Shown here: one piece after another, positions 5,261-63,447 of the stretch
How the letters are laid out: the number at the start of each line of letters is the position of its first letter
Position numbering within the stretch: position 1 is the first letter of the stretch
Source: Saprospiraceae bacterium
GTDB taxonomy: Bacteria > Bacteroidota > Bacteroidia > Chitinophagales > Saprospiraceae
DNA: 64,000 nt
Assembly (NCBI GenBank): GCA_965215215.1
Contig: OZ244043.1
Span: 2,610,351-2,674,350 of the forward strand
Reading direction: 5' to 3'
Notes under the pieces: generated by a model
The model's input: the letters and a program-made list of their open reading frames with translations, nothing else
Databases searched by the model: none
Told to the model about the DNA's origin: nothing
Program-made: the position numbers and the translations under genes

Positions 5261-7530
5261 CAGAGTCGCTCGTTGATGAACTCGGTCATGAGCTCGTAGA
5301 GGTGGAGGCGGGTAGTGCCCCCGTAGATACCGTGATTCCGGTTCGGGTACGCGAAGAACTCGAACTCCTTGTTGGCCGCCACGAGTGCGTCGACCATCTC
5401 TACGGAGTGCTGGAAGTGGACGTTGTCGTCGCCCATACCGTGCACGAGCAGGTAGTCGCCCTCGAGTCGGTCGGCGAAGTACACCGGGCTGTTCTCCCGG
5501 TAGCCGGCCGGGTTCTCCTCGGTGGTGTGCATGTAGCGCTCCGTGTAGAGCGTGTCGTACCACTTCCAGTTGGTCACGGGGGCGACGGCGATCGCGAGGC
5601 TAAATACCCCGGCACCCTTCGTGATGCACAGGCTCGTCATGTATCCCCCGTAGCTCCAACCGAAGATCCCGATGCGTTCGGCGTCGATGTACGGCTGAGC
5701 GCCCAGGTGTTTTGCGGCAGCGATTTGATCTTTTACCTCCAGGTCGCCGAGCTTGAGAAACGTTTGCTTCTCGAACTCGACCCCGCGTCCGCCGGTGCCG
5801 CGGTTGTCGACGCAGGCCACTACGTAGCCCTGTTGGGCGAGCATCTGGAACCACCAATAATTCACCCCGCTCCACGCGTCGACGACTTGCTGCGAGCCCG
5901 GTCCGCCGTACACGAACATGAACAGCGGGTACACTTTATCCCCGCTTTCGCTAAAACCCTCCGGGGTTATCCGCCAACCGTTGAGCTCTATTCCCTCCTC
6001 GGTGTCGAAGCTGAAAAACTCTACCTCCCGCACGCCTTCCTCCCCCTGCGTCGCGACTACGGACGCGTTGTCGACCAGGGAGCGCAGCAGCGAGCCGTCG
6101 CGTTCGTAAACGGCGTAGGTCGGCGGCCGATTCGCGGTAGAGTGCGCGAGCATGTAGCCGGAAAAGTCGGCGTTAAACTGCGCATCGTTCCAGCCCGACT
6201 CCGACGACATTCGCTTGGGCGTACCCCCGGCCAGCGGCACATTGTACACCTCGCGGCGCATCGGACTCTCCCGGGCGGCCTGGAAGAACAGCGTCTCGGA
6301 TACGGGGTCGTAGCCGTAAAACTCCGTCACGGGATAGTTGCCTCCGGTGAGCTGTCGGATCAGCTCACCACTGGCGTCGTAGTGGTAGAGGTGGTTGAAA
6401 CCGGTACCCTCGCCGGAGAGTAGGAAGCTGCCGTCCTGGAGGAAGCGCAGATCGTCGTTCACCTCGAGGTAACGCGAGGAAGTCTCCCGGTGCAGCACGT
6501 TCAGCTCGGCCCCGGCCGTCGGCTCCGCACGTAAGCTGAAGGTGTCCTGGTGGCGATTGGTGGTCAGCAGCACGGGGAGGTTGCCGGGCGTCCAGTAGAG
6601 GCGCGGGATGTGCGTGTCGCCGTCTTCGGTGTCGAAGATGATCCGGGTCGCGCCGCTGGCGAGCGTGTACACCCGCGCGCTCACCGTCGAGTTGGGCTCG
6701 CCCACCTTCGGGTACTTGAAGGTCACGTACTCCGGGTAGAGTTCGTCGGTGTACTTCTCCATGGTGTACTCCGGCACCAGCCGTTCGTCGAAACGCAGGA
6801 AGAGCAACTCCTCGCCGCTCGGGCTCCACGCGAAGGCCTGCGCGATGCTGAACTCCTCTTCGTACACCCAGTCCGTGGCTCCGTTGATGATGGCGTTGGC
6901 CTCGCCGTCGTCGGTTACCCGCGTCACCTCGCCGCTGGCGAGCTCTTTGACGTACAGGTCGTTGGCCCGTACGTAGGCCACCCGGCTGCCGTCGGGCGAG
7001 AACGTGGCGTACATCTGCGCGCCCGCCGTGTCGAGCGCCGTGAGCCGCGCGGTGTCCCCGGTGAAGAGGTAGTAGTTCGCCCGCGAGGAGCGGCGGTAAA
7101 TGGCCTCGCTCCCGGTGGCGATGAGCGCCTTGCCGCCGTCGGCGCTGAAGACGTAGTCGTCGAAGCGCTCGGGCAGTCCGTTCGCGTTGCCGCCCGCGGC
7201 GATGTAGTCGAAGAGTACGTCGCTCGGCTCACCGGTGGTAAAATCGACGAGCTCCACGGTGTTGTCCGTGATCCGGGTGTAGAAATTCCCGCGGTCGGAA
7301 AAGTTGAACCCGGGCACGTCGTCGGCGAAGAACTTGTAGTCCTCCCAGATCTCGTTGAGCGTGATGTTCGTCTTGCGGGCCGGCGCAGGCGGGGCGGGGA
7401 CGGGTGCCGGGCCCTGGCCATACGCGTCGCCCGCGCTACCGAGGGCGAGTAGGCTTCCGCAAAACGAGAGCGCACCGAACAGGGCGGTAGTCAGCTGGCT
7501 GCGGGGTGTTTTAGCGAAAGCGATGGGCAT
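5260..7530 (-). CDS. dipeptidyl-peptidase IV family serine peptidase (S9B)
   Basis: Signal peptide and a long N-terminal propeller-like region. The C-terminal alpha/beta hydrolase has GWSYGG, and GMGDDNVHFQHS supplies the Asp/His. Confidence 0.9.
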   Translation of the reverse strand: MPIAFAKTPRSQLTTALFGALSFCGSLLALGSAGDAYGQGPAPVPAPPAPARKTNITLNEIWEDYKFFADDVPGFNFSDRGNFYTRITDNTVELVDFTTGEPSDVLFDYIAAGGNANGLPERFDDYVFSADGGKALIATGSEAIYRRSSRANYYLFTGDTARLTALDTAGAQMYATFSPDGSRVAYVRANDLYVKELASGEVTRVTDDGEANAIINGATDWVYEEEFSIAQAFAWSPSGEELLFLRFDERLVPEYTMEKYTDELYPEYVTFKYPKVGEPNSTVSARVYTLASGATRIIFDTEDGDTHIPRLYWTPGNLPVLLTTNRHQDTFSLRAEPTAGAELNVLHRETSSRYLEVNDDLRFLQDGSFLLSGEGTGFNHLYHYDASGELIRQLTGGNYPVTEFYGYDPVSETLFFQAARESPMRREVYNVPLAGGTPKRMSSESGWNDAQFNADFSGYMLAHSTANRPPTYAVYERDGSLLRSLVDNASVVATQGEEGVREVEFFSFDTEEGIELNGWRITPEGFSESGDKVYPLFMFVYGGPGSQQVVDAWSGVNYWWFQMLAQQGYVVACVDNRGTGGRGVEFEKQTFLKLGDLEVKDQIAAAKHLGAQPYIDAERIGIFGWSYGGYMTSLCITKGAGVFSLAIAVAPVTNWKWYDTLYTERYMHTTEENPAGYRENSPVYFADRLEGDYLLVHGMGDDNVHFQHSVEMVDALVAANKEFEFFAYPNRNHGIYGGTTRLHLYELMTEFINERL
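5709..5722 (+). repeat. dispersed word, short variant GTTTTGCGGCAGCG
   Basis: Inside dpp4, antisense (AAAKH). Confidence 0.5.
5943..5957 (-). repeat. dispersed word, exact 15-mer (plus strand reads CGCTTTCGCTAAAAC)
   Basis: Inside dpp4, sense, encoding GFSESG. Confidence 0.9.
7453..7465 (-). repeat. dispersed word, short variant (GCTTCCGCAAAAC)
   Basis: In the dpp4 signal-peptide codons (SFCGS). Forms an inverted pair with 7508..7522. Confidence 0.6.
7508..7522 (+). repeat. dispersed word, exact GTTTTAGCGAAAGCG
   Basis: dpp4 codons 4-8, antisense (AFAKT). Confidence 0.9.
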
Positions 7531-7577
7531 GGGGCGGGGTAGGGTTGGGGGGGGTAAATATCAGCGGCGCGCGGGAC

Positions 7578-9128
7578 TTAGATGCGCTTGCGGCTACGGC
7601 GGGCCGCCTGGCGGGCCTGGCGCTGCAGCGCGTCGATGGTCTCGCGTACCTCACGGCGCCGGGCGCGTGCCTCGGCCGCGACCGGGGGCGCGGCGCGGAC
7701 CTCGCAATCGGTGAGGGCGCAACGCTCGCAGGTGTTGGCCACCTGACGCGAGGGGAGCCGCGCCGTACTCAGGAAACGCACCTGCCGACGGAGGACCGCA
7801 TCGTGCGGCAGACCGATGCAAACTACGCGTCGCCGACCGCTCGGTTCGCGGTCGGCGAGCGCGAACACGAAGTACTCCTCGTCGGTACCCTCGAAGCGTT
7901 CGAGCTGCACGCCGACGCGCGTGCGGCTTCTTTCCCCCCCGCGCTCCTCGGACTCGTCGGCGAGCAGACGCGAGGCCACCCAGCGGCGGCAGTAGTGCTC
8001 GTCGAGTCCGGTGGAGTGGGGGCGGTGGCGCGTGCCGAGGTGCAGCTCGCGACTCACCTGGATGCCGCCGCCGGACTGCTCGGTGAGCTCGAGCAGGAAC
8101 AGGCTCCGGATCCCGCGGCGGGCGGGCAGCAGGCCGGCGAGTCGGTCGAAGAGCAGCAGCGGCGTCACGGCGAACTCCGTGCACAGTGCGACCAGCTGAC
8201 TCGGCCGGGGCCGCTGCTCGCTGATGAGGCTCTCGATGCCCGCGTCGAGCGCCTCGGCCGGCAGCAGGAGCGCGCCGGCGAAAGCGCTCGAGTTGGCCTG
8301 GGCGAGCGCCTCGTCGAAGCCGCGCACCCGCAGCGAGGGCGCCGTGAGGCTCCGGGTAGCCGGATCGAGGATGGCGTAGCCGAGCTCCTCGGCCAGGTGG
8401 TAGCGGAGCTCCGCGGCGGACAGGCCCGCTTTGAGGAGGGTGGTCCGACTCACCGGAACGAGGACGCGCTCCAAGCCGTCGAAGGCCGGGTGCGCGTCGA
8501 GTCCGCCCACGTCGAGGTGGTAGTCGAAACGCCCGCGGAGCAGTTGCGCGAGCTCCTCGACGCCCGGCACGTGGGCGTCGCTCCAACCGAGCTCCAGGCG
8601 CAGATCGGCGGCGGCCTGCTCGGGCTCGAGCAGGAAGTTCTCGTGCATCTCCAACCACGAACGCAGCGCGCCCACGTAAAAGCTCTCGTCGCGCAGGGCG
8701 TAGTTGCGGGAGAGCTCGAGCAGGGTGGAGATGAAGGCCCCGACGCGGGCCGGCGCGCCGGCGATGATCTCGACGATCTTCGCGAGCTCGATCCCGAAGC
8801 GGTCGAGGGGGAGCTCGTTGAGGAAGTTGGAGCGCAGCAGCTCGGCCACCGGCATCATGGCCGCATCCAGGGTACGGTCGCTGAGCGTACCCGACTCCAC
8901 CTCGAGGGCGCGGGCGAGGTCGGCCATCTTGTCCGGCTTCGGCGATTTTTTGCCCCGCTCGATTTCGTTGAGGTAGCTCACCGAGATACCGGTCAGCGCG
9001 GCGAGCTGCTGGAAGCTCAGTCCGCGGGCCGCCCGGAGCTGGCGGAGCTTGAGGCCGAAGAGGATGCGTTCGTTTTGGGGGCGTAGGGCCATAGGGGAGG
9101 TCGGGCGCCAAAGTAGCTCCATTGACAA
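7578..9128 (-). CDS. XRE-family transcriptional regulator with ImmA/IrrE-like middle domain and Cys-containing C-terminal domain (ScfR/RamB-like architecture)
   Basis: HTH FGLKLRQLRAARGLSFQQLAALTGISVSYLNEIERGKKSP. The middle region aligns by eye to the ImmA position but reads YHLAEELGY. The C-terminus has CERCALTDCEV. The start could be the second Met (MALRPQ). Confidence 0.75.
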   Translation of the reverse strand: MSMELLWRPTSPMALRPQNERILFGLKLRQLRAARGLSFQQLAALTGISVSYLNEIERGKKSPKPDKMADLARALEVESGTLSDRTLDAAMMPVAELLRSNFLNELPLDRFGIELAKIVEIIAGAPARVGAFISTLLELSRNYALRDESFYVGALRSWLEMHENFLLEPEQAAADLRLELGWSDAHVPGVEELAQLLRGRFDYHLDVGGLDAHPAFDGLERVLVPVSRTTLLKAGLSAAELRYHLAEELGYAILDPATRSLTAPSLRVRGFDEALAQANSSAFAGALLLPAEALDAGIESLISEQRPRPSQLVALCTEFAVTPLLLFDRLAGLLPARRGIRSLFLLELTEQSGGGIQVSRELHLGTRHRPHSTGLDEHYCRRWVASRLLADESEERGGERSRTRVGVQLERFEGTDEEYFVFALADREPSGRRRVVCIGLPHDAVLRRQVRFLSTARLPSRQVANTCERCALTDCEVRAAPPVAAEARARRREVRETIDALQRQARQAARRSRKRI

Positions 9129-10960: not shown

Positions 10961-12342
10961 CCTGGGCGCTTGTCCGCGCCGAAGATGCGTAAACTCCAGC
11001 GACGCCACGCGGGTAGGCTCCGCTCACGCAGTTCGGGGATGTCGATCCGGAAGGCCGCCCCGCGTTTGCGGTCGCTCTCCAGGCTGAGCTCGTAGCCGTG
11101 CGCGCGGCACACGCCGCCCACGTAAAACAGTCCGAGGCCGAAGCCTTTCACGTCGTGGACGTTGCCCGTGGGTACGCGGTAAAATTTTTCGAACACCTTG
11201 CTGTGTTGCTCGACGGGAATCCCGATCCCCTCGTCGGCTACCGTCACGCGAAAACCGGCGGGGGTGTTCTCGGTGCACACCGTGATCTGCGGCGCTTCGG
11301 GCGAATACTTCACCGCGTTGTCGAGGAGGGCGGAGATGGCGCCGGACAGGTGCATGCGATCCGCGGGGAGGTGCGGGCCATTCGCCCCGAGTTTTAGCGA
11401 GAGCGTACCCCCGAGCTCCTCGATCTTGGCGCGCGGTCCGTCGCAAGTTTCCACGACTAACTCGTTGAGGTCGATGGGCTCCTTCTGCAGCTCGAAGCGA
11501 TTGCGTTCGATGCGGGCGAGCTGTAGCACTTTTTCGACCTGCTCGGTGAGTCGCTCGTTCTGGGAGGCCACGATGTCGGCGTAGCGGGCGAGGCGGGCGT
11601 CGGCCTGGATGGGGCCGGCCCGCTGCAGCACCCCCGCGGCCACCTTGATGGTGGAGAGCGGGGTTTTGAACTCGTGGGTCATGTTGTTGATAAAATCCTT
11701 CTGCATCTCGCCGAGCTGCTGTTGGCGTACGAGCACCCAGGTGGCGTAGGCGAAGAAGAGTACGGTAACCAGCAGCACCCCGCCGAGCGTACTCACCGCG
11801 CCGAGGGAGGCGAGCAGCGAGCTGGCGTGGTCCGGGAAACGCACCCCGAAGTAGTAGATGTACTCGTCGTAGGTGGGGAGCTCCTCGTTGAGCAAATCCG
11901 CCTGCTCGACCGAATCGGGGCGGGCCCGGTAGCTCACGTAATCGCCGTACACCATCTTGTCGGTGTAGCAGTCGTAGATCCCGTAATCGAAGGCCTCCGT
12001 CAGTCCGACCGCCTCGAGCTCGCGGCGCAGGAGGTACTCCAGGTCGTTGGCGTCGATGCTGGCGTTGAGGTTGACCACGTAGTAGTTGGCCGTGATCGGG
12101 TTTATGAGGTCTATGTCGGGCACCGAGATACCCGATTGTTCCTCGAAACCCTGCGCTACGGCGAGCAGCGCCTCCTTTACTTGCTGATCGAACTCCTGAC
12201 TCTTGAGCTGATAAGCCGACCACAGCCAGTAGCCCTGCAGCGCGAACGCCGCCAGGATAGCGATGATGCCGAGGATAACGACCTGGTACAGCGAACGTTT
12301 GCGCATAGGGTGGGGGCGGGCGGGGGGCGTACCGGATAACAT
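10945..12342 (-). CDS. sensor histidine kinase (HisKA + HATPase_c)
   Basis: N-terminal TM segments. H-box NMTHEFKTPLSTI, N-box LLDNAVKYS, G-boxes DEGIGIP / GFGLGL. It overlaps the regulator start by 16 nt. The start may be MRKRSLY at 12306. Confidence 0.85.
   Translation of the reverse strand: MLSGTPPARPHPMRKRSLYQVVILGIIAILAAFALQGYWLWSAYQLKSQEFDQQVKEALLAVAQGFEEQSGISVPDIDLINPITANYYVVNLNASIDANDLEYLLRRELEAVGLTEAFDYGIYDCYTDKMVYGDYVSYRARPDSVEQADLLNEELPTYDEYIYYFGVRFPDHASSLLASLGAVSTLGGVLLVTVLFFAYATWVLVRQQQLGEMQKDFINNMTHEFKTPLSTIKVAAGVLQRAGPIQADARLARYADIVASQNERLTEQVEKVLQLARIERNRFELQKEPIDLNELVVETCDGPRAKIEELGGTLSLKLGANGPHLPADRMHLSGAISALLDNAVKYSPEAPQITVCTENTPAGFRVTVADEGIGIPVEQHSKVFEKFYRVPTGNVHDVKGFGLGLFYVGGVCRAHGYELSLESDRKRGAAFRIDIPELRERSLPAWRRWSLRIFGADKRPGWTQM
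11391..11405 (+). repeat. dispersed word GTTTTAGCGAGAGCG
   Basis: Inside the histidine kinase gene (TLSLKL). Confidence 0.8.
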
Positions 12343-14763: not shown

Positions 14764-15330
14764 ATGTCTCGCTTTCAACCCGCTTTGCTCCTCCTGCTAC
14801 TCGTTACCGCAACGCTCGGGAGCGGTTGTAAGAAGGACGAGCCGGACGAGCCGCGTTTCGATGAGCTCAGGCTCGACGGCGACAACGCGACCGGTCCGCA
14901 GCTCGACGCGGGTACACACCGTTTCGGGGTGCGTTTTAGCGAAAGCGAGCTGCGCGATTACGTAGGCGAAGAGCTAACGGGAATCCGGGTGTTCGTGGGC
15001 GCTGCGCCCGTTTCGATGCGGCTCTCGGTGAGTTCCGGGGGGGAGGTGGTGCCGGGCGTAGACCTCGCTACGTTGCAGGTATCGAGCTTCGGGAACGTGC
15101 GGCGGTTCGTCGACTACGACCTGCGTGCTCCGGTGCGTATTGAGGCCGGGGAGGCGCTGTGGCTCGTAGCGGAAGTGGAGCTCGACGGAGACGCCCAGCA
15201 AAGTATCGGCTGCGACAGCGGTCCCCGCCGAGCGGGGGGCGACTGGCTCTGGTCCGGCGACCGCTGGCTCACCTTCGAAGAGCGCAACGGGGAGAGCGTG
15301 AACTGGAACATCCGCGGACTGGTGCGCTAG
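14764..15330 (+). CDS. hypothetical lipoprotein
   Basis: MSRFQPALLLLLLVTATLGSGC carries a lipobox. Start moved to the ATG at 14764. No family recognised. Confidence 0.5.
   Translation: MSRFQPALLLLLLVTATLGSGCKKDEPDEPRFDELRLDGDNATGPQLDAGTHRFGVRFSESELRDYVGEELTGIRVFVGAAPVSMRLSVSSGGEVVPGVDLATLQVSSFGNVRRFVDYDLRAPVRIEAGEALWLVAEVELDGDAQQSIGCDSGPRRAGGDWLWSGDRWLTFEERNGESVNWNIRGLVR
14933..14947 (+). repeat. dispersed word, exact GTTTTAGCGAAAGCG
   Basis: Inside the lipoprotein gene (RFSESE). Confidence 0.9.
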
Positions 15331-15986
15331 TCTTTTTTCTTAAAGTCACCGTCTTTCCAAGACTTGAAAAACTGTCCCCAGGCCACCGGCGAGAAGATGT
15401 TCATCGGCGGCGTTTGCCCGACGTAGTAGCTGCGGCGGGCCTGCTGACGCAGGTAAAAATCGGCCGACTCGTCCCCGTCGGGCAGCACTTCCTTGCGCGC
15501 TTGTTGCAGCCGCTCTTCGGCGAGGTTGACCTGGGCTTTGCGCTGCAGCTCGCTGCTCACGTCCATGGCCAAAAACTCGAGCTTGAAGTGCTCGCGGCTC
15601 GGCCAGGGGAAGATGACGGCGGTGGGCAGGTTGACCGTATCCTGCGAGAGCAGCTGCACGACGGAGTAGCGCTGCTCGCCGAGGGTGTCCGGCACCACGA
15701 GCGAGGCCGCCTCGAAGCCTACCGCCGTGAAGCGGATGGTGTCGCCTTCCTTGACGACGATGGAGAAGAAGCCGGAGAAATCGGAGTAGGTGCCCCGCCC
15801 CGAGCCCTGTACGTAAATGTTCGCGTAGGGAATACTCGCCAACTCCTCCTGGGAGCCGTCCAGTACGAGGCCGGAGAGTTGTACGAGGGCCGTGTCCGGG
15901 GCTTGCGCCAAAACGGGTTGCGCCAGGGCACCGATCAGGACCAAAAGTCCGGCGGCGGCGTGGCGGAAGCGGAGCGACAGATGCAT
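15327..15986 (-). CDS. carboxypeptidase-regulatory-like domain protein
   Basis: Signal peptide. LSGLVLDGSQEELASIPYANIYVQGSGRGTYSDFSGFFSIVVKEGDTIRF resembles CarboxypepD_reg. Start set to MHLSLRF so the gene no longer overlaps lon. Confidence 0.6.
   Translation of the reverse strand: MHLSLRFRHAAAGLLVLIGALAQPVLAQAPDTALVQLSGLVLDGSQEELASIPYANIYVQGSGRGTYSDFSGFFSIVVKEGDTIRFTAVGFEAASLVVPDTLGEQRYSVVQLLSQDTVNLPTAVIFPWPSREHFKLEFLAMDVSSELQRKAQVNLAEERLQQARKEVLPDGDESADFYLRQQARRSYYVGQTPPMNIFSPVAWGQFFKSWKDGDFKKKD
15901..15914 (-). repeat. dispersed word (GCTTGCGCCAAAAC)
   Basis: In the signal-peptide end of 15327..15986 (VLAQA). Confidence 0.85.
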
Positions 15987-18936: not shown

Positions 18937-18962
18937 CTGCGACTACGTTTCCGTAAGGCTGG

Positions 18963-21025: not shown

Positions 21026-21040
21026 GTTTTAGCGAAAGCG
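21026..21040 (+). repeat. dispersed word, exact GTTTTAGCGAAAGCG
   Basis: Intergenic, between the divergent parE and sbcD-like genes. Confidence 0.9.
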
Positions 21041-31323: not shown

Positions 31324-33213
<1,890 letters not shown>

Positions 33214-48024: not shown

Positions 48025-50031
48025 CTACGCCTCGGGCACGTTCGCCCGTAACTCGGCGAGCCAAACTTCCGCCCCCGCGTCACTCGGCGCGCGCCAGTCG
48101 CCGCGCGGACTCAGGCTTCCCCCCGAACCGACCTTCGGTCCGTTCGGCACCGCCGAGCGCTTGAACTGACTGATCCGGAAGAACCGCCAGCAGAACACCT
48201 CGAGCCACTTGCGGATCGTGGCCAGGTCGTACTTCTCGCCCCAAGCGTGCAGGCTCAAATAAGCCACCTTACTCGGCCGCGAGCCGTAGCGCGTCGTGTA
48301 GAACGTATTGAAGTCCTGCAGCTCGTAGGGGCCTATCTTCTCCTCGGTCCGCTGCGCGGGCTGTCCGCTTTCGCTAAAACCGGGGACCAATTCCGGGGAG
48401 ATCTCGGTGGCCACGATATCTCGGAGCGTCGCGCTCGCTCCCTCGCCGAACTCGCCGGTATCGGCCACCCAGCGGATGAGGTGCTGGATAAGCGTTTTGG
48501 GCACGGAGGCATTAACGTTGTAGTGGCTCATGTGGTCGCCCACCCCGTAGGTCGCCCAGCCGAGGGCGAGCTCGGAGAGATCGCCCGTACCGAGCACCAT
48601 AGCGCCGTGGTGGTTGGCGAGTCGAAACAAGTGACTCGTCCGTTCGCCCGCCTGCACGTTCTCGAAGGTGACGTCGTACTGCTCTGTGCCGGTGGAGTAG
48701 GGGTGGCCGATGTCGCGCAGCATCTGCTCGCTCGAGGGGCGGATGTCGATCTCGGAGGCGCTCACCCCGAGGGCGTGCATCAACCTCCAGGCGTTGGATT
48801 TGGTGCCTTCGCTCGTGGCGAAGCCGGGCATCGTGTAGGCGAGCACGTTGGTGCGCGGCAGCCCTAGCCGATCCATGGTTTTCGCGGCGACGATGAGGGC
48901 CTGCGTGCTGTCGAGCCCGCCGGAGACCCCGATCACGAGCTTGTGGATCCCGGTCGCCGAGAGGCGTTTGGCCAAACCGGCCACCTGGATGTTGTAGGCC
49001 TCGTAGCAGCGTTCGTGGCGCCGGGCGGGGTCGCTCGGTACGTAGGGGAACCGCTCCACGTGTCGGGCGAGCGCGACGGGTTTTAGCGGCAGCGGGAGGG
49101 AGAGGGAGACCCGCCGAATCTTTCCAACCCGCCCGCGGTGTGCCCCCGCGGTGTCGTTGAAGCTGGTGAGGCGCATGCGCTCCTGCGCGAGGCGTTCGAG
49201 GTCGATGTCGCCGAAGATGAGCTGCTCTTCCGACGAAAACCGCTCGCTCTCGGCGAGCAGCTCGCCGTTCTCGTACACCATCGCGTGGCCGTCCCAAGCG
49301 AGGTCGGTGGTGGATTCGCCCGCTCCGGCGGCGGCGTAGCAGTAGGCGGCGAGGCACTTCGCGCTCTGTTGGGCGCAGAGGGCGCGGCGGTATTCGGCCT
49401 TGCCGACGGTGATGTTGGAGGCCGAGAGGTTGAGCAGCACCGTGGCCCCGCCGAGGGCGGCGTAGGTACTGGGGGGGATGGGCGTCCAGACGTCCTCGCA
49501 GATCTCGAGGTGGAAGGTGAAGTCGGGGATTTCGCGCAGGACGTACACGACGTCGTTGCCGAAGGGTACCGTCTCGCCGAGGAGTTCTACTTCCGTAAAA
49601 ACGGCGTCCCGCCCGCTGGTGAACTGTCGCTTCTCGTAGAATTCGCGGTAGTTGGGTAGGTAGGTCTTCGGCGTTACGCCGCGCACCCTACCCTGGGCGA
49701 CGACGACGCCGCAGTTGTAGAGGGCGCCGCGGAACCGCAGGGGGAGGCCGACGACGAGGGCGCAGCTCAGCGCGTGGCTGGCCTCGACGACCGCCCGCAG
49801 CGCCGCCAGCGCCGCATCGAGCAGGGCGTCCTGGTGAAAGAGGTCTTCGTTGGTGTAGGCCGAGAGCCCGAGCTCCGGGAAAAGGGCGAGCACCGCGCCC
49901 CGCTCGGAAGCCTCGCGAGCGAGACCTAGAGTTTGATCGACATTGAAGCTCGGATCGGCGACGCGCACGTGCGGGACCCCGACGGCGACGCGGGCGAAGC
50001 CGTGGGTGTATAAGGAGTGGAAGTTGGCCAT
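48025..50031 (-). CDS. nadE: glutamine-dependent NAD+ synthetase (long form)
   Basis: An N-terminal CN-hydrolase (nitrilase-like) domain and a C-terminal NAD synthetase domain with GVSGGLDST. Length is 668 aa. Confidence 0.9.
48366..48380 (-). repeat. dispersed word, exact 15-mer (CGCTTTCGCTAAAAC)
   Basis: Inside nadE (GFSESG). Confidence 0.9.
49080..49094 (+). repeat. dispersed word GTTTTAGCGGCAGCG
   Basis: Inside nadE (LPLKP). Confidence 0.75.
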
Positions 50032-50085: not shown

Positions 50086-51855
50086 CTACTGCCTCAGGAA
50101 GCGCCCGACAACCGTATCGACCGGTCCTCGCCCCTCGAGGACGTAGCTCCCTGCCGGAAAATGGCTCACGGTGAAAACGAGTCTCTCGCCGGAGTTACCG
50201 CTGGCCTCAACGGGAGTGCGGCGGCCGCTCACGTCGGTCACCGACCACGATCGCGCTGCAAATCCGCCACCGGCCAGGCTCACTGTAACCTCGTCGCCCA
50301 CCGGATTTGGCGAAAGCGAGAGCTGAGCGAGTGAGCGCTTACGCGGTGTCGGGTCGGAGATGGAGGAGACCCGGTCGGTCCCTAACGTGTAATCCGAAGT
50401 GGGCCAGAAGCCCACGTGGAGGATGGAGGTGAAGGTCTCGAGCTCCCTGTCCTCCGTGAAGAGCTCCACGGTATCTCCTACGGGTAGGGTAGTGGTGGTA
50501 TAGAAGAGTTGCGGACGCTGACTGGCACGCAACTCTTCCTCCTCGACGAAACCGAAGGTCAACCCTACCGAATCGTCGACTAGGGCACCGTCGTAATCGA
50601 AGCGGAGGCGGTGGGCGAAACGACCTAAACCACTGGGTGGGTCCGGTGTAAGGCTGTACTCAGTAAGGCCGGTGGCCCCCGGCGTGAAGGGGCGGGGCTG
50701 GTAAAATTCGGCGGGCGTAGCGGCGGTGATCACGAAGGATGCTGCGTTCGCGTACCGAGGGGCTTCGAGGGAGTAGATGGGTGGGTACGGGACGTTGGTC
50801 TCGTAGAAATCATCCGGCGAAAACAGAGCCGTCGCCGCGTAACGGCCGTCGGGGAGGATCTGAAGCGAGGTAATCCGGTTGGTGGCCCCTTGGTACCACG
50901 GGTAGGCTTCGGCGAGGGTATCGCCTTCGGAGAAAACGAAGAGCGAGTCCGGGTCCCCCTCCTCTCCGTAAGTACCGCCCGTTACGACGATCGTTCCGTC
51001 GGCCGCGACTTGCGGGGCACCGCCCGCGCTGAGTAAGTTGGTGGGCATCCGGTAGGTAGCTGTCCCCGTGTCCCTCGTCACGGTGTAGCCCGGGAAGGCT
51101 GGGGCGGTGACACCGAAGGCGTAAAATGCTTCGCCGGTCACCGTTTGGGTACTTACTCCTTCGATATAGCTAGCGGACTCGACCTCCCCGGTTAAAAGGT
51201 CGATGAGTGTGTAGCCTCCTGTAGACATAAGGACTGCCTTATCCCCGAATACTCCAAACGTGATGCTCTCCGATGAAGCGTAACCGAAGGGCCTATTGTA
51301 GGTAAACGTCCTACCGTCGTCCAGCGCTCGGGCCGCCATGTCGTAGGTGTAGATGACTAATTCGCCCGGATTTGCGTCGTCCGTAGCGTACGGGAGATCA
51401 TAGACGACAACGTAAAGCTTGGATCCGTCTGCCGAGAAAGCGAGGCGGGCATTGAGTAGTTGGTTTCGGGCGCTCTCCACGAGTTCCGTCTCGGCGGTGT
51501 CGCTTCCGGTCAGTCCGCGCAAATAGAGCCGGAAGAACCCTGGAGGAGCATCAGCGATCCCCGGTTCCCCGTAGACCCCGTAGAGATCGCCATTCGGCGC
51601 GTAGGCCACGTCGTCGACGAGCTCGCTGGAGGTCAACAGCGGCTTCTGCGTTCCGAGGTCGCCGTCACCCTGGTCGCGGTAAACAGCGAGATCGTTGACC
51701 GTGAGCACGGCCCGCTGCTCGGCGTCCACCGGATTGAAGATTACCTTCTGGAGGTAGCACGGTATGCAGGCTTGCGAAGTGGCCGAAGTCTGCGCTCGGA
51801 GCGTCGCCGCAAGCCAGAGAACGGAGAGGAGGGTGAGGGTTATGGGGCGTAGCAT
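50086..51855 (-). CDS. secreted hypothetical protein with T9SS C-terminal domain
   Basis: Signal peptide MLRPITLTLLSVLWLAATLRAQ. The C-terminal LSLSPNPVGDEVTV...GSYVLE is a CTD. Confidence 0.6.
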   Translation of the reverse strand: MLRPITLTLLSVLWLAATLRAQTSATSQACIPCYLQKVIFNPVDAEQRAVLTVNDLAVYRDQGDGDLGTQKPLLTSSELVDDVAYAPNGDLYGVYGEPGIADAPPGFFRLYLRGLTGSDTAETELVESARNQLLNARLAFSADGSKLYVVVYDLPYATDDANPGELVIYTYDMAARALDDGRTFTYNRPFGYASSESITFGVFGDKAVLMSTGGYTLIDLLTGEVESASYIEGVSTQTVTGEAFYAFGVTAPAFPGYTVTRDTGTATYRMPTNLLSAGGAPQVAADGTIVVTGGTYGEEGDPDSLFVFSEGDTLAEAYPWYQGATNRITSLQILPDGRYAATALFSPDDFYETNVPYPPIYSLEAPRYANAASFVITAATPAEFYQPRPFTPGATGLTEYSLTPDPPSGLGRFAHRLRFDYDGALVDDSVGLTFGFVEEEELRASQRPQLFYTTTTLPVGDTVELFTEDRELETFTSILHVGFWPTSDYTLGTDRVSSISDPTPRKRSLAQLSLSPNPVGDEVTVSLAGGGFAARSWSVTDVSGRRTPVEASGNSGERLVFTVSHFPAGSYVLEGRGPVDTVVGRFLRQ

Positions 51856-52003: not shown

Positions 52004-52018
52004 GTTTTAGCGAAAGCG
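52004..52018 (+). repeat. dispersed word, exact GTTTTAGCGAAAGCG
   Basis: Intergenic, between 51855 and 52050. Confidence 0.9.
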
Positions 52019-52049: not shown

Positions 52050-52904
52050 TTATGCTCGCAACCCCCCCGCCTCCCGCTCGATGAACGCCCCCAACCCCCC
52101 CGGCGCCAGTCCTGTGAGGTAGGTATAATCCGCACTAATCCGCAACGGAGCCTGAAACCTCGTCGTCCAGTGGATGAGCGTTTTCGCGAGCGCGAATCCC
52201 GGCGCCTCTCCGCGGCGGATCTCACCGATGGCGTAGGTGATCGGGTTCGGACTTCGGTAGCGGATACGTACGGCGAGTTTTTGCGAAAGCGACCCGGCCA
52301 CCTCCTGAAAGTCGAGCAGTTGCGTGCCGGTGATCGTGTAGGCGCGTCCGGCGTGCCTGCCGGGATCCGAGAGTACAGCGGCTACGGCGCGACCGATGTC
52401 TTCGGTGTCTACCCAGAGGAACTTTGCCCTCCCGGCCGGTACCCGGAGGAGGTGACGCTCGCGGATGTCGTCGGCGAAAACTTCCGTGAGGTTTTGCATG
52501 AAGTAGCTCGGCCGCAGGAAGGTGAAGGGGACGCCCGAGGCGCGGATGACCCGCTCGACGTGGGCGTGCGGTAGGTAAGAAGCCGACTCGGCACCTTCGA
52601 CGGACATAAAAATTACGTGCCGGACGCCTTCCCCCCGCGCTACCCGCAGGAGCTGGGTGTAGCGCTCGGTCACGGCTGACAGCCCGGGCGGAAGCAGGAG
52701 GAACGCCGTGTCCGCCCGTCGGAACGCGGCGCGGGATTCCAGCGGGTCCTCGTAATCGAAGAACGGGTGCGCGGCGTCGACCTCGCTGCGGTGGCGCGTA
52801 CCGAGCAGGAGCTGCGCCTCCGGCAGCGTGTCGGCGAGGGCCCGAGCGGCCGCACCACCGACGGTCCCGCTGCTACCGGTGATGAGGGGGTGAGTAGCCT
52901 TCAT
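52050..52904 (-). CDS. NmrA-like / atypical SDR NAD(P)-binding protein
   Basis: From MKATHPLITGSSGTVGGAAARAL (Rossmann motif). The 34-aa N-extension in the track is rejected. Confidence 0.75.
   Translation of the reverse strand: MKATHPLITGSSGTVGGAAARALADTLPEAQLLLGTRHRSEVDAAHPFFDYEDPLESRAAFRRADTAFLLLPPGLSAVTERYTQLLRVARGEGVRHVIFMSVEGAESASYLPHAHVERVIRASGVPFTFLRPSYFMQNLTEVFADDIRERHLLRVPAGRAKFLWVDTEDIGRAVAAVLSDPGRHAGRAYTITGTQLLDFQEVAGSLSQKLAVRIRYRSPNPITYAIGEIRRGEAPGFALAKTLIHWTTRFQAPLRISADYTYLTGLAPGGLGAFIEREAGGLRA
52277..52291 (+). repeat. dispersed word GTTTTTGCGAAAGCG
   Basis: Inside the NmrA-like gene (SLSQKL). Confidence 0.75.
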
Positions 52905-52912
52905 GGTTTCGG

Positions 52913-54076
52913 GTGAAACCGCGTTGCCGGGAGATTGTGCGGCATTACCGTATTGTGCCTCGCCGACGGGCCCGGCCGTCGATCTTGGCCGCCGTGACGA
53001 ATACACTCAGTCCCGACCTCGGCAGGTCCGCTTCCGCCGCCGGCACGCTCGGCACCCCACCCGCGCTCGTACGCCTCACTGCGCTCTGGGCCCTCGTAGA
53101 ATCGGCGCTCGGTGGCCTCATGCACGCCTTCCACATCCCGCTCGCGGGCATCTGGATGGGGAGCGTGGCGGCGGTACTCATCCTGCTCATCGCCTACTTC
53201 GCCGCGCGGCCGCGCGACATCCTGCAAGCCACTCTACTCGTGCTCATCGTCAAGGCGGTCGGCAGTCCGCACACCTCGCTCGGCGGGTACACGGCCGTGG
53301 CGTTTCAGGGGCTGTGGGGCTTCGCGGTGTTCGGGTTCCTCGGGCGCTCCCTGCCGGCCTGCCTGTTGTACTCCACGGTCGCGCTACTCGAGTCGGCCGT
53401 GCAGCGCCTGCTCATGCTCGCGCTGCTCTACGGTCGCCCGCTCGCCGAGGCCATCGACGAGTGGGGGGAGTTCGTGCGGCGGTGGGCGTTCCCGGAGCGT
53501 TTTGCGGAAGCACTCTCGCTGTCGGGGCTGCTCATCGGCGTTTACCTCACGGCGTACACGGTGGCGGGTCTGCTGCTCGGCTACTTCCTTTACCGCCTGC
53601 CCGTTTTGCTCGAGCGAGAACGAGTGGCGATGGCGGAGGAAACGCCGGCTCGGCTTGCGCCAAAACAGCAGGCATCCGCTGTCGCTAAAACACCCCGCGC
53701 GGCCTGGCGGCGCTACCTGCCGCTGGTCGCGCTCGCGGTACTCGTCGCGGTACTGAGTTACGCGGACAGTAGCTCGCCCCTGGTGTCGGGCGGTATGTAC
53801 CTCGCGCGCACGGCGCTGATCTTGGCGGTTTGGTACGGCGTGTTGGGGCCGCTGCTCGCGCGTTTCGTGCGGCAATATTTGCTGCGCAAGCAAGGCGAGC
53901 GCGCCGGGGAGCTGCGGGAGGTGATGGATTGGTTGCCGCAGTTGCGGGGGCTGGCGAGCGGACAGTACGCCCAGCTCGCGACACGCTACAGCGGACTCGA
54001 GCTGTACCGGCGCTGGTTGCTGCGGACCTTGGTGGTGGCGTTGGGGGCTGCGTCTCTGTCGCCTCAGCGTACGTAG
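52913..54076 (+). CDS. polytopic membrane protein, unknown family
   Basis: Several hydrophobic helices (LTALWALVESALGG, VAAVLILLIAYF, LLVLIVKAV ...). The start is uncertain. Confidence 0.45.
   Translation: MKPRCREIVRHYRIVPRRRARPSILAAVTNTLSPDLGRSASAAGTLGTPPALVRLTALWALVESALGGLMHAFHIPLAGIWMGSVAAVLILLIAYFAARPRDILQATLLVLIVKAVGSPHTSLGGYTAVAFQGLWGFAVFGFLGRSLPACLLYSTVALLESAVQRLLMLALLYGRPLAEAIDEWGEFVRRWAFPERFAEALSLSGLLIGVYLTAYTVAGLLLGYFLYRLPVLLERERVAMAEETPARLAPKQQASAVAKTPRAAWRRYLPLVALAVLVAVLSYADSSSPLVSGGMYLARTALILAVWYGVLGPLLARFVRQYLLRKQGERAGELREVMDWLPQLRGLASGQYAQLATRYSGLELYRRWLLRTLVVALGAASLSPQRT
53499..53511 (+). repeat. dispersed word, short variant GTTTTGCGGAAGC
   Basis: Inside the membrane-protein gene (RFAEA). 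Confidence 0.7.
53653..53666 (-). repeat. dispersed word (GCTTGCGCCAAAAC)
   Basis: Inside the membrane-protein gene (RLAPKQ). Confidence 0.85.
53678..53691 (-). repeat. dispersed word (GCTGTCGCTAAAAC)
   Basis: Its start lies 25 nt downstream of the start of the previous copy, in the same orientation (AVAKT). Confidence 0.7.
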
Positions 54077-56699: not shown

Positions 56700-56713
56700 G
56701 CTTGCGCTAAAAC
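56700..56713 (-). repeat. dispersed word (GCTTGCGCTAAAAC)
   Basis: Intergenic, between convergent genes. Confidence 0.8.
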
Positions 56714-56724: not shown

Positions 56725-57609
56725 CTACTGCGCACACCGCGCCTCCACGTAAACCGCCCCAATGCTGAGTCCCCACTCGTCCTTGTACTTCGACCAACTC
56801 CCGTCCGTCGATTTCGTACGACCCGGATACGCCGTCGGATTACAGGGCATGTTTACAAATAGGCCTTCCCCAGGCTCGCTTACATCAACGAGCTCTATGG
56901 ATACGGCAAAGTCTCCTTCGGTCCGCACGCCCTGCTCCTGGACATCGAGCGCTAGGGTACGCCGCGCCTCCCGCCTCGTGATCGGCCACACGATCGGGGA
57001 GCGCTGAATGGGCTCGTCCGGTAGCCCCTCCGTATCGATCGTATAAAAATTCACCTCTAGGGTAGCCTCATCGGCCGTCAGGTGGTTGGACTGTACGTAC
57101 ACTTTATCGATCCGGCACCGGCGGTCGGATTCGACGACCACCGCATTCTCGGTACCGAGTTCGCCCATCTGGTGTACGGCGTAACACAGGAAGGTTTTCT
57201 TGGCGCGCTCGCCCAACCGTTGCGCTTTACCCCAGGTGTAGGCGTCCACCACCTCGGCCTCCGCTAATTCGTAGGTGGCTTTCGCCAAAACCAATTGTGG
57301 AGCGCTACGCGCTGCCCGCACGCTGAGCGAGGTATCGCGGTAGCCGATGGCACTGATGCGGAGCTCGGTCGTGGCGTGTTTTGCCGTGAGCAGAATTTCC
57401 GGAAGCTCCACCGATCCGTCGAGCGTGCCTACCGCGCCCGCGTTCGCCCGTAGCGCGTACACGTTGACGTAAGGGATGGGGCTGCCATCGATATCGACGA
57501 TGTGGATGGTGGAGGCTTGTGGTTGGGCAAACAAACTCAGGAAGGGCCAGCAGAAGAAGGGGAGTAGCAGGAAGGGCCAGCAGAAGAAGGGGAGTAGTAC
57601 GTAGCGCAT
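56725..57609 (-). CDS. carboxypeptidase-regulatory-like domain protein
   Basis: Signal peptide followed by IHIVDIDGSPIPYVNVYALRANAGAVGTLDGSVELP. Confidence 0.55.
   Translation of the reverse strand: MRYVLLPFFCWPFLLLPFFCWPFLSLFAQPQASTIHIVDIDGSPIPYVNVYALRANAGAVGTLDGSVELPEILLTAKHATTELRISAIGYRDTSLSVRAARSAPQLVLAKATYELAEAEVVDAYTWGKAQRLGERAKKTFLCYAVHQMGELGTENAVVVESDRRCRIDKVYVQSNHLTADEATLEVNFYTIDTEGLPDEPIQRSPIVWPITRREARRTLALDVQEQGVRTEGDFAVSIELVDVSEPGEGLFVNMPCNPTAYPGRTKSTDGSWSKYKDEWGLSIGAVYVEARCAQ
57278..57291 (-). repeat. dispersed word (GCTTTCGCCAAAAC)
   Basis: Inside 56725..57609 (VLAKA). The 22-nt string cgtaggtggctttcgccaaaac at 57270..57291 is identical to 60228..60249. Confidence 0.85.
57541..57600 (-). 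repeat. 30-bp tandem duplication inside the signal-peptide coding region
   Basis: The units gaagggccagcagaagaaggggagtagcag and gaagggccagcagaagaaggggagtagtac match at 28/30 positions. They encode LLPFFCWPFL twice. Confidence 0.9.
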
Positions 57610-57702: not shown

Positions 57703-58302
57703 CTACTTCCTCCCGAAGTGATACCTGATCCCTACGCTCGGCCGCACGGTGAGCCCAAAGCCCCGCCCCGCGTACTGCGGCCGGATCCCGAGGTCGAGCT
57801 CGAGCGGCGCTCGCTTAAGCGCGTAGCGAAAGCCGGCGACACCCTGTACGGTTAGGTTGGTCTTCGCGCCTAAAGACTCACCGTCGGACGTGCCGCCCGC
57901 GTTGCGGCTACTGTAGTTCAGGAAGCCCAGGCCTCCGCCGGCGTAAAACGTCCACTGCGGATTCTGCATCCGCCAATCGCGCTGCAGCGTCACGGTCGCC
58001 TGAAACCGCCTCGACTGCATTCGTCCGGGCAGCATACGCGGGAGATCCACAACGCTCGTGCGCCAGTACCCCGCCGTCGCCTCCGCGCTCCACCGGTCGC
58101 CGATGGGCATTCGGTAGGAGAGGTCGAGGTTCTCCAGTAGCCGATCCGCCCCGCGCGCCGTCTCGTACTTCGGGTTGAAGCGGATGCCAACGGCGTGCGT
58201 GCGGTCGACTTGCGCAACGAGGAGCAGGGGCGTTACAGCCAGGGTAGTCGCGAGGAAGAGCACGCGCCATAGCAGCGCAGGTCCGCTTGCGCTAAAACGC
58301 AT
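57703..58302 (-). CDS. small outer-membrane beta-barrel protein (OMP_b-brl-like)
   Basis: From MRFSASGPALLWRVLFLATTLAV (signal peptide). About 200 aa with alternating hydrophobic strands. The 56-aa N-extension in the track is rejected. Confidence 0.55.
   Translation of the reverse strand: MRFSASGPALLWRVLFLATTLAVTPLLLVAQVDRTHAVGIRFNPKYETARGADRLLENLDLSYRMPIGDRWSAEATAGYWRTSVVDLPRMLPGRMQSRRFQATVTLQRDWRMQNPQWTFYAGGGLGFLNYSSRNAGGTSDGESLGAKTNLTVQGVAGFRYALKRAPLELDLGIRPQYAGRGFGLTVRPSVGIRYHFGRK
58285..58298 (-). repeat. dispersed word (GCTTGCGCTAAAAC)
   Basis: Codons 2-6 of the small OMP gene (MRFSAS). Confidence 0.8.
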
Positions 58303-60235: not shown

Positions 60236-60249
60236 GCTTTCGCCAAAAC
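60236..60249 (-). repeat. dispersed word (GCTTTCGCCAAAAC)
   Basis: Unassigned sequence downstream of the DUF1905 remnant. Confidence 0.85.
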
Positions 60250-60343: not shown

Positions 60344-60922
60344 CTATCCCATCGTCTCGGAGGCTTGCGCCACGTGCCGCTCGTTGTGCCACACGAGTGT
60401 ATACAGCATGTCGCCGAGCCGTAGGCGAACAAGCGGGAAGGCTGAGACGGGTATTCGCGAGCCGTCCAGCCGTTTGTCGCGTAGCGCGCGTAGTACGGAC
60501 CCGTAGCTACACTGATTGGCCACGAAGCTGGTCACCACCCGCCCGGCGTCGAGTGGGGAGCCCAGCGGGTTCATGTTGCCCGGACTGCGCACCGGCTTCG
60601 TGCGCCCGCTCACGTGCATGGTCCGCGCGAAGGGTTTGCCGAGTAGTCCGGGGCGGTACGGGGCGTCGGGGTTGCTGCGGATTTTGGCGGAAGCGGTGCG
60701 GGCTTCTAGGCGGGGGAGGTAATGGTCGGCGTAGCGATTCAGGTGCTCGAGGCACTCCAGGGCGCTCCACTTCCCCGCGCCCGGTCGGCGATTGAGCGCG
60801 GCGTCGCTTTTCTCCGGGAGGCTTTCGCCAAAACGAATTAGGCCCATTTGGATGGCGAGCAAATCTTCCAGCGCTTGTTCCTCCGTTTTGGCGAAAGCGG
60901 AACGGGAGTTGGCGGGGTGCAT
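60344..60922 (-). CDS. DinB-superfamily protein
   Basis: WSALECLEHLNRYADHYLPRLE and WHNERHVAQA are four-helix-bundle His motifs of the DinB_2 type. Confidence 0.75.
   Translation of the reverse strand: MHPANSRSAFAKTEEQALEDLLAIQMGLIRFGESLPEKSDAALNRRPGAGKWSALECLEHLNRYADHYLPRLEARTASAKIRSNPDAPYRPGLLGKPFARTMHVSGRTKPVRSPGNMNPLGSPLDAGRVVTSFVANQCSYGSVLRALRDKRLDGSRIPVSAFPLVRLRLGDMLYTLVWHNERHVAQASETMG
60821..60834 (-). repeat. dispersed word (GCTTTCGCCAAAAC)
   Basis: Inside the DinB gene (RFGES). Left arm of a perfect inverted pair. Confidence 0.9.
60885..60899 (+). repeat. dispersed word GTTTTGGCGAAAGCG
   Basis: Inside the DinB gene (AFAKT). Right arm of the perfect inverted pair. Confidence 0.9.
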
Positions 60923-61587: not shown

Positions 61588-61776
61588 ACAACCCCCGCCA
61601 GGTTTCAGGCAAAAGTTAAGCCCCCAACCCTCACGCGATGTAGCTCGTGTAGTTTTTCCGGGTGGGCACCCCCCGCGCGGGCTTCCCGTAAGCTGAGGCG
61701 AAGGTGCGAAGTAGGCGCTCGGGCCGGCACACCGTCTTTATTTGGAGTGAGGTTGCAGTGGCCGCTAGCGTGTCCC

Positions 61777-61855
61777 AAATCGCAGTATTACGCAAAATTT
61801 GGCGATTACAATCGCAAGAATTAACTGAATCTTGCGATTAAGCCTCCGCCAAAAC
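61777..61855 (+). repeat. 79-nt repeat copy A (four AATCGC/GCGATT half-sites plus the dispersed word at its 3' end)
   Basis: Half-sites lie at 61778-83, 61802-07, 61810-15 and 61834-39. The copy ends with GCCTCCGCCAAAAC. It matches copy B at 63/79 positions without gaps (hand count). Confidence 0.8.
61842..61855 (-). repeat. dispersed word, variant (GCCTCCGCCAAAAC)
   Basis: The 3' end of 79-nt repeat A. Confidence 0.6.
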
Positions 61856-62028: not shown

Positions 62029-62043
62029 GTTTTGGCGGAAGCC
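62029..62043 (+). repeat. dispersed word GTTTTGGCGGAAGCC
   Basis: Unassigned region between repeat A and the ATPase gene. Confidence 0.75.
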
Positions 62044-63326: not shown

Positions 63327-63368
63327 TCGCCGTTCGAGACGGGGCTGTAGTAGTCGCGGTATGTTGTC

Positions 63369-63447
63369 TAATCGCAGGATTAAGCCAAATCTAGCGATTA
63401 CGATCGCAAGATTTATAGAAATCTAGCGATTAGGCTTGCGCCAAAAC
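63369..63447 (+). repeat. 79-nt repeat copy B
   Basis: Half-sites lie at 63370-75, 63394-99, 63402-07 (GATCGC) and 63426-31, with the same spacing as copy A. The copy ends with GCTTGCGCCAAAAC. Confidence 0.8.
63434..63447 (-). repeat. dispersed word (GCTTGCGCCAAAAC)
   Basis: The 3' end of 79-nt repeat B. Confidence 0.85.

Follow-up and report, generated by a model that had tools for sequence, protein, structure and literature searches.

Why should a single asymmetric word of 14–15 bp recur about once every 2 kb, in genes and between them, in a member of the Saprospiraceae? The question is raised by a 64,000-nt stretch of contig OZ244043.1 (assembly GCA_965215215.1, positions 2,610,351 to 2,674,350 of the forward strand), referred to below as the window. 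Its two strands hold 21 exact matches to the degenerate 14-mer GTTTTRGCGNAAGC, which is non-palindromic (its reverse complement, GCTTNCGCYAAAAC, differs). With up to one mismatch there are 32 copies, 16 on the plus and 16 on the minus strand, against 0.18 expected; with up to two there are 37 against 2.7 expected, the five 2-mismatch copies being near chance. A preliminary description of this DNA had reported at least 36 copies, with exact counts of 7, 4, and 4 for three particular spellings, and these counts were all reproduced, at the same positions and on the same strands: the 15-mer GTTTTAGCGAAAGCG is present 7 times (none expected, from 100 dinucleotide-preserving shuffles of the window), and GTTTTGGCGCAAGC and GTTTTGGCGAAAGC 4 times each (Table 1). 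The first coordinate given there, 5709, is a weak variant one base shorter (GTTTTGCGGCAGC), and is not counted here.

The excess over compositional expectation is very large. The comparison with Markov models that had been proposed as a check predicts 0.002–0.04 exact matches to GTTTTRGCGNAAGC against the 21 found (orders 0–5, trained on the window with the word copies left in). The window has a G+C content of 63.6%, with third-codon-position GC of about 0.72–0.91 in well-supported genes, so the T4 and A3 runs of the word oppose the prevailing composition; even so, 27 of the 122 GTTTT pentamers extend to GTTTTRGCG, its first nine bases. Some other 10–11-mers recur in the window as well (GCGCTCACCG, GCCGTAGCCGC, CGCGAGCTCGA); these are coding strings rich in G and C, with no fixed context. 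Scaled to the 4.32-Mb source contig, the density would correspond to about 1,400–2,200 copies, an extrapolation rather than a count. The window shows a monotonic rise in cumulative GC skew, and the 16/16 orientation within it is incompatible with a 75% strand skew (p = 0.002, from this one 64-kb window), in keeping with the earlier view that the word is not a polar signal of the KOPS or Chi type.

Along the window, the gaps between copies fit random, Poisson-like placement (coefficient of variation 0.99; largest gap 7.7 kb, p = 0.45). The longest word-free stretch (40686–48366), with DUF5715, DUF1501, DUF1800, and DUF5715 genes, is also where GC is at its minimum for the window (0.58 at 44–48 kb); though within random expectation, it could be acquired DNA. 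The last 16 kb hold 17 of the 32 copies. Close groups include a direct pair at 53653/53678 (25 nt apart) and an inverted pair at 60821/60885 (starts 64 nt apart).

The constraint acts on the DNA word and not on a peptide, as was originally suggested. Of the 32 copies, 26 are coding (10 sense, 16 antisense) and six intergenic (21026, 52004, 56700, 60236, 61842, and 63434; at least five had been reported), in a window with a coding fraction of about 0.89; copy 21026 is counted as intergenic because the true parE start is the ATG at 20882. Coding copies are spread over unrelated genes, in either orientation to the gene, and are read in the four main frames already noted: VLA[KQ]A, F[SG][EA]S, A[FSV]AKT, and L[STP]LK. 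The frames that would give TAG or TAA were said to be unused; this holds for copies with A at position 6, but two copies without it (36608 and 25812) do use them. The four encoded peptides are found 24 times in the annotated proteins of the window; the word underlies 21 of these cases, including all five of F[SG][EA]S (as TTT-(A/G)GC-G(A/C)A-AGC), and the codons concerned are rare: GTT 0.10, TTG 0.08, CTA 0.07, CTT 0.04, GCT 0.08, TTT 0.23, GAA 0.24, and AAA 0.33. It is therefore the word that gives rise to the peptides, and not the reverse. Such inflation of their own peptides has also been reported for uptake sequences (Findlay & Redfield; PMC2817400). Besides avoiding stop-giving frames, copies sit in signal peptides and in indel-rich loops. 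The VLA[K/Q]A frame makes a near-ideal signal-peptide end (A-x-A), and several copies are at predicted ends (15901 in the window; 2325 in L396, a relative introduced below); these show the word lodging where the proteome tolerates it.

How far does the word extend beyond this genome? Comparison loci were found by a Lon search, a metagenome scan with Lon, and a NadE homology search. The first gave three “Saprospiraceae” metagenome-assembled genomes (L001–L003) at 81–82% identity, all others being at 67% or less; the second added two marine contigs (L201 and L202) at 80–81%. All five are word-bearing at the lon locus, at about one copy per 2.5–7.5 kb and a GC of 0.45–0.53. The six lon-locus genomes are 80–93% identical in Lon, the window genome being the most divergent. 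The NadE search gave three more relatives (L396–L398; NadE 75–76% identical, with neighboring genes unlike those of the window): L396 (GC 0.66), from a circular 5.25-Mb contig, has 23 copies in 22 kb, L397 (GC 0.68) has 9, and L398 (GC 0.60) has 15, while L399 (NadE 74%), apparently outside the clade, has no copy at its nadE locus. Orientation in L396–L398 is again balanced (25 plus, 22 minus), and 43 of the 47 copies are in called genes (20 sense, 23 antisense), in the same frames as in the window. Over the window and these three loci together, sense and antisense copies number 30 and 39 (p = 0.34), and the coding share of copies is 81–91%.

The word marks a clade irrespective of base composition, at about one copy per 1–3 kb in this genome and its relatives. 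Clade DNA amounting to about 200 kb yields 110 matches to GTTTTGGCGAAAGC when up to two mismatches are allowed (42 exact, 44 with one mismatch); at this threshold, 2.47 Mb of Bacteroidota control loci yield 39, none exact and two with one mismatch. Likewise, exact matches are lacking in 155 other Bacteroidota lon loci (2.45 Mb), where ten matches with one mismatch were counted. The nine genomes with the word (the window and eight relatives) range from 45 to 68% GC, and are independent assemblies from different projects. Its presence at two unrelated loci and in eight relatives, and its absence from about 2.5 Mb of other Bacteroidota, bear out the initial proposal of a genome-wide, lineage-specific iterated word, comparable to the DNA uptake sequences (DUS) and uptake signal sequences (USS) of other bacteria. 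When 80 Bacteroidota loci were surveyed for 11-mers, no other lineage showed a dispersed word of this kind. Viruses do not seem to share it: a complete IMG/VR scan for the 15-mer gave 115 stretches, all but one with a single match, so phages do not carry the word densely, and its occurrence there looks like chance. That no description of such a word was known likewise stands: no mention of it was found in the open-access papers searched (four spellings gave one irrelevant primer match), and no open-access paper was found linking uptake sequences with Saprospiraceae or Bacteroidota.

Some local features of the relatives may be mentioned here. The only long word-free stretch in L397 (10360–17651) is gene-poor and contains a transposase (DDE_Tnp_1) fragment, which hints, anecdotally, that the word is depleted in mobile DNA. 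L396 has five copies within 330 nt (18729–19059), over an OEP/TetR gene boundary and including a direct pair 18 nt apart. L003 has eight spaced repeats of about 60–110 nt (14385–15008) with a core GGTATCGCAAGTTCGCTGCGCTCACCGCAA and no counterpart in the window; with their uneven spacing and partly repeated flanks, these are not CRISPR-like.

The shape of the motif is sharply bounded. A logo of all copies has no information outside positions 1–15, and no conserved flanks. The clade consensus is GTTTTGGCGAAAGC(C) and the form of the window genome is GTTTTRGCGNAAGCS. Position 10 (N) was originally taken as the single free base; it is instead a weak position with a preference for A (23/23 low-GC copies, 37/56 high-GC copies, and 18/31 window copies), while position 6 varies as much (A in about half of the window copies, G in the relatives) and position 11 somewhat. 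Position 15 is C in 44 of 56 copies from high-GC relatives, and C or T in 20 of 23 low-GC ones. In the window, A6 is found with G15 in 13/15 copies, and G6 with C15 in 11/15 (Fisher p = 0.0007); codon context explains part of this covariation, and the two effects are inseparable here. The A form can be written as GTTTT-AGCG-AA-AGCG, with a direct repeat of AGCG, and the G form as GTTTT-GGC-GNAA-GCC, with a 3-bp inverted repeat; the relatives use almost only the G...C/T form.

Orthologue alignments, another check that had been suggested, show how copies come and go. Words align without gaps to unrelated codons in word-less orthologues, so that copies are made by substitution and not by insertion. 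A site in Lon (EAFAKT) has the word in six relatives, but not in the window genome. In nadE, the relatives have CGT TTT GGC GGA AGC where the window has CGG TTC CGC GGC GCC and an outgroup CGC TTC GAG GGC AAG; there is a synonymous change as well, ACG CCA AAA in the relatives vs. ACG CCG AAG in the window, for the same amino acids. Where sites are shared, the word is 100% identical and the 30-nt flanks 76%. At site 15901, in the signal peptide of the gene downstream of lon, 13–14 of the 14 positions are kept in six genomes, with flanks almost unalignable among the window, L001, L002, L003, L201, and L202 (alignment 15850–15975). Most sites of the window lineage are not common to the relatives, and vice versa. 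Density is thus maintained over the long term, while positions turn over.

Taken as a whole, this points, if tentatively, to a lineage-specific self-recognition word of the DUS/USS type (“DUES”), kept by biased uptake and recombination. This explanation is preferred because density, balanced orientation, tolerated frames, peptide inflation, origin by substitution, clade dialects, and independence of composition make up the published signature of such words (PMC2817400; bioRxiv 10.1101/2025.10.24.684340); that no other mechanism known to us spreads an asymmetric 14-mer in this way suggests the same. Uptake, a receptor, and drive are what we infer from this likeness. Cells of the Saprospiraceae-like clade would take up environmental double-stranded DNA, with a surface receptor preferring word-bearing fragments, and homologous recombination of the imported fragments would copy the word into the chromosome. 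Point mutations creating or improving a copy would be over-transmitted (molecular drive), and selection at the protein level would confine copies to tolerated frames and positions. Among the Bacteroidota, natural transformation is known: Riemerella uses ComEC, DprA, ComF, and RecA, together with a DUF5689 surface protein, a CarboxypepD_reg outer-membrane barrel, and a helix-hairpin-helix periplasmic protein, without a type IV pilus (PMC8459023). An uptake machine here would accordingly be of some similar kind: probably not a type IV pilus, with a Riemerella-type surface component as the candidate receptor, which would then be non-homologous to ComP.

Sequence-specific self-DNA recognition in transformation has been described only for the Neisseriaceae and Pasteurellaceae (2025 survey, bioRxiv 10.1101/2025.10.24.684340), and the comparison with these is instructive. 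Copy numbers of 1,471 USS in H. influenzae and 1,892 DUS in N. meningitidis (PMC2817400) correspond to a density like that of the word in the window. The Pasteurellaceae USS (9-bp core AAGTGCGGT or ACAAGCGGT, with flanking AT tracts) is like the word in several ways: thousands of copies expected per genome, in both orientations; location mostly in genes, in few tolerated frames; a raised frequency of the peptides it encodes; copies created by point substitution; and restriction to a family-level clade, with dialects. The differences are an unrelated sequence in another phylum, a longer core (14–15 bp), no AT-rich phased flanks, no association with terminators, and a larger share in genes (81–91% vs. 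49–65%); minor pilins of the ComN/ComP type are also not expected if a Riemerella-type machine is used. The Neisseriaceae DUS (12-mer ATGCCGTCTGAA and dialects; receptor ComP) is similarly non-palindromic, of comparable density, with dialect-like variation, enriched far beyond compositional expectation, and present in genome-maintenance genes (for the word sbcD and DinB_2, and lon in relatives). Unlike the word, DUS are mostly intergenic (34.5% in open reading frames, ORFs; PMC2817400) and often form terminators as inverted pairs. No such pairs were found for the word: in a 50–64 kb scan covering five of the six intergenic copies (21026 being outside it), no terminator-like hairpin contains a copy, and the only close inverted pair is inside the DinB_2 coding sequence (CDS). 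By direct comparison, GTTTTRGCGNAAGC has no core in common with ATGCCGTCTGAA, AAGTGCGGT, or ACAAGCGGT. In its genomic signature the word matches the uptake sequences of Neisseria and Haemophilus; it belongs to neither sequence family.

Several observations weigh against an uptake word. The clade is known only from metagenome-assembled genomes and metagenomes. No competence gene was found in the 64-kb window, essentially all ORFs having been searched with Pfam and NCBIfam, and motif scans of the comparison loci for DprA, ComEA, and ComF gave only one ComF-like ORF, in a locus outside the clade (L021); ComF is in any case too widespread to be diagnostic. Known uptake sequences are 9–12 nt long, with about half in terminators, often as inverted pairs (bioRxiv 10.1101/2025.10.24.684340), and have an ORF share of only 35–65% (PMC2817400). 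With 14–15 nt, no terminator hairpins, and 81–91% in genes, the word is unlike them. Its spacing is Poisson-like rather than even. In cyanobacteria, finally, HIP1 is a hyper-abundant word with no demonstrated link to uptake.

As an alternative, the word could be the binding site of a clade-specific protein with no role in uptake, for example in nucleoid organization or in self-marking for repair, recombination, or defense, with selection acting on the array as a whole. The motif itself would suit such a protein: it has 14–15 bp with sharply defined positions and no flank conservation, it is conserved over nine genomes of very different GC, and single sites persist as their flanks diverge. Against it, the sites of known chromosome-organizing systems (parS, matS, SlmA, and Noc) are present in tens per genome, not thousands, and Chi and KOPS are short and strand-skewed, while the 16/16 orientation of the word is incompatible with a 75% skew. 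Some 2,000 coding sites of 14 bp, held against codon preference, would cost much and bring only a diffuse benefit, and the free turnover of positions between lineages fits drive better than site-by-site function. This explanation is on the unlikely side.

The word might also be no uptake signal at all, but the footprint of an undescribed system of self-marking or conversion, for example one in which a clade-specific protein recognizes the 14–15-mer on the chromosome and either protects DNA that carries it or converts near-matches. The covariation of positions 6 and 15 (A...G vs. G...C) would then reflect two modes of recognition. We consider this unlikely.

A mutational or repair drive, making the word HIP1-like, would dispense with uptake altogether: sequence-specific nicking, methylation, or repair of the very-short-patch type would convert near-matches into the word. 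HIP1 (GCGATCGC) and the word are alike in being hyper-abundant short words at about 1 per kb, lineage-wide, with no mobile-element context, and at similar density in genes and between them. The origin of copies by point substitution, synonymous sites included, and the many 1-mismatch copies (44/110 in the clade) would also be expected of such a process. However, HIP1 is palindromic, has 8 bp, and includes methylation sites, while the word is asymmetric and has 14–15 bp, unlike typical methyltransferase or Vsr targets; no enzyme of this kind was identified, and the presence of two Uma2-family genes in the window is so far a coincidence. A drive of this sort is quite improbable.

Very improbable, in our view, is recognition of the word as a single-stranded mini-hairpin formed by its GCGNAAGC part, and not as a duplex, during replication, recombination, or uptake. 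This had been put forward at the outset, with the word read as a GNRA-type loop. The oligonucleotide d(GCGAAAGC) is unusually stable, a property that nearest-neighbor parameters miss, and in the G variant G6 and C15 could add a third base pair. The predicted folding is weak (−0.8 to −2.3 kcal/mol, in a model without that special stability) and no better than that of shuffles, with the complementary strand unfolded. N is not free, being A in 23/23 low-GC copies; G15, present in 13/15 A-variant copies of the window, cannot pair with A6 and so cannot extend the stem; and the hairpin makes no use of the invariant GTTTT half.

Ordinary causes (a peptide motif, small mobile elements such as MITE or REP, CRISPR-like repeats, or an assembly artefact) might be thought of because intergenic copies 61842 and 63434 head a common element of about 85 nt, because copies 57278 and 60236 are alike in their 3′ flanks, and because some CRISPR repeats also start with GTTTTAG, but for the bulk of copies they are rejected as scarcely credible, given the unrelated genes, four frames, both strands, and rare codons, the lack of conserved flanks, the gap-free alignment to word-less orthologues, the irregular Poisson-like spacing, the lack of Rfam or tRNA matches, and the nine independent assemblies. 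Neither one protein motif nor one mobile-element family, alternatives named in the preliminary description, accounts for the word. Although REP, BIME, and MITE sequences also have many dispersed copies in both orientations, they are 20–300 bp long, extragenic, palindromic, and spread by insertion, whereas copies of the word are mostly genic, flankless, and made by substitution.

The 32 copies with at most one mismatch are listed in Table 1. Nearly all ORFs of the window were annotated with Pfam and NCBIfam, and they form an ordinary Bacteroidota set of housekeeping and envelope functions: DPP-IV, CorA, two-component systems, HemD, Lon, ParE, SbcCD, ABC-F, a GH64 glucanase with a type IX secretion system (T9SS) tail, a TonB-dependent receptor, NadE, Uma2 nucleases, DinB_2, and an AAA_14/DUF4143 ATPase. 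The T9SS tails and CarboxypepD_reg TonB receptors indicate a Bacteroidota origin. No Rfam family and no tRNA was found in the window.

Table 1. Copies of the word in the window with at most one mismatch to the degenerate 14-mer, with their gene context and, for coding copies, the peptide read.
Position	Strand	Sequence	Mismatches	Location	Orientation to gene	Peptide or remark
5944..5957	-	GTTTTAGCGAAAGC		DPP-IV (S9 peptidase) CDS	sense	FSES
7508..7521	+	GTTTTAGCGAAAGC		DPP-IV CDS, first codons	antisense	AFAKT
11391..11404	+	GTTTTAGCGAGAGC	1	histidine kinase CDS	antisense	LSLK
14933..14946	+	GTTTTAGCGAAAGC		203-aa unknown CDS	sense	FSES
15901..15914	-	GTTTTGGCGCAAGC		signal peptide, CarboxypepD_reg protein downstream of lon		VLAQA
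21026..21039	+	GTTTTAGCGAAAGC		parE/sbcD divergent spacer		26 nt upstream of sbcD ATG
21259..21272	+	GTTCTGGCGAAAGC	1	sbcD	sense	VLAKA
25812..25825	+	GTTTTCGCGTAAGC	1	1202-aa unknown CDS	antisense	frame gives stop if A at position 6
26860..26873	-	GTTTTGGCGCAAGC		1202-aa CDS	sense	VLAQA
27107..27120	+	GTTTTAGCGGGAGC	1	1202-aa CDS	antisense	LPLK
28373..28386	+	GTTTTAGCGAAAGC		1202-aa CDS	antisense	LSLK
32496..32509	-	GTTTTAGCGTAAGC		ABC-F CDS	antisense	LTLK
32950..32963	-	GTTTTGGCGGAAGC		ABC-F CDS	antisense	ASAKT
36608..36621	-	GTTTTGGCGACAGC	1	LytTR response regulator	sense	FWRQ; frame open to G variant only
40672..40685	+	GTTTTAGCGTAAGC		TonB-dependent receptor CDS	antisense	LTLK
48367..48380	-	GTTTTAGCGAAAGC		nadE, indel-rich loop	sense	FSES
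49080..49093	+	GTTTTAGCGGCAGC	1	nadE, indel-rich loop	antisense	LPLK
50304..50317	+	GATTTGGCGAAAGC	1	589-aa unknown CDS	antisense	
52004..52017	+	GTTTTAGCGAAAGC		intergenic, 33 nt downstream of NmrA-like gene		adjoins, but lies outside, terminator-like hairpin 51975-51990
52277..52290	+	GTTTTTGCGAAAGC	1	NmrA-like CDS	antisense	
53653..53666	-	GTTTTGGCGCAAGC		387-aa CDS	antisense	direct pair with 53678
53678..53691	-	GTTTTAGCGACAGC	1	387-aa CDS	antisense	AVAKT
56700..56713	-	GTTTTAGCGCAAGC		28-nt spacer of two convergent genes		occupies most of the spacer
57278..57291	-	GTTTTGGCGAAAGC		CarboxypepD_reg_2 protein	sense	VLAKA
58285..58298	-	GTTTTAGCGCAAGC		PagL-like CDS	sense	FSAS
60236..60249	-	GTTTTGGCGAAAGC		outside supported CDS		3′ flank like that of 57278
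60681..60694	+	ATTTTGGCGGAAGC	1	DinB_2 CDS	antisense	
60821..60834	-	GTTTTGGCGAAAGC		DinB_2 CDS	sense	FGES
60885..60898	+	GTTTTGGCGAAAGC		DinB_2 CDS	antisense	AFAKT
61842..61855	-	GTTTTGGCGGAGGC	1	intergenic		heads ~85-nt element common with 63434
62029..62042	+	GTTTTGGCGGAAGC		92-aa ORF	antisense	ASAKT
63434..63447	-	GTTTTGGCGCAAGC		intergenic, 108 nt upstream of AAA_14/DUF4143 gene		heads ~85-nt element

A few of these contexts call for comment. The element of about 85 nt is present twice on the minus strand (61760–61855 and 63350–63447), with the word as its exact start, followed by repeated TAATCGC/GCGATT motifs (e.g., AATCGCAAGATT...TCTTGCGATTGTAATCGC). One copy is upstream of a gene for a cNMP-binding regulator and the other upstream of the AAA_14/DUF4143 ATPase gene; these are the only two in the window, and none was found among 395 comparison loci searched. 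The element has the look of an operator or promoter region common to the two genes. The similar 3′ flanks of 57278–57330 and 60236–60290, both on the minus strand, would read VLAKATYELAEAE and VLAKATYGLAGAR if in the same frame; copy 60236 is out of frame with the ORF at 59670–60329, and its region may derive from a paralogue of the CarboxypepD_reg_2 gene that has since decayed. The 1202-aa ORF (24969–28577, minus strand), which has four copies, shows a strong coding signal (third-position GC 0.88); neither it nor the 589-aa ORF (50086–51855) has a family match in Pfam or NCBIfam. The two Uma2-family genes (PD-(D/E)XK, “putative restriction endonuclease”; 54314–54889 and 59044–59736) are less than 5 kb apart, in the part of the window where the word is densest.

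What would such a word mean for this clade? At the least it is a cheap barcode for binning and recognizing contigs of the marine clade, and for spotting foreign DNA in them, and it supplies a concrete 14-mer that can be used as bait for a receptor. With sister genomes at 45–68% GC, in which an AT-rich word survives strong codon bias, it is also a natural test of molecular drive. A system of self-marking or conversion, if that were the true explanation, would be a new kind of genome-wide signal. For decades only two uptake-word systems have been known, and this would be a third, with an unrelated word, from an uncultured marine clade in another phylum, whose known uptake machinery has no type IV pilus; if an uptake role is true, uptake specificity or drive evolves convergently.

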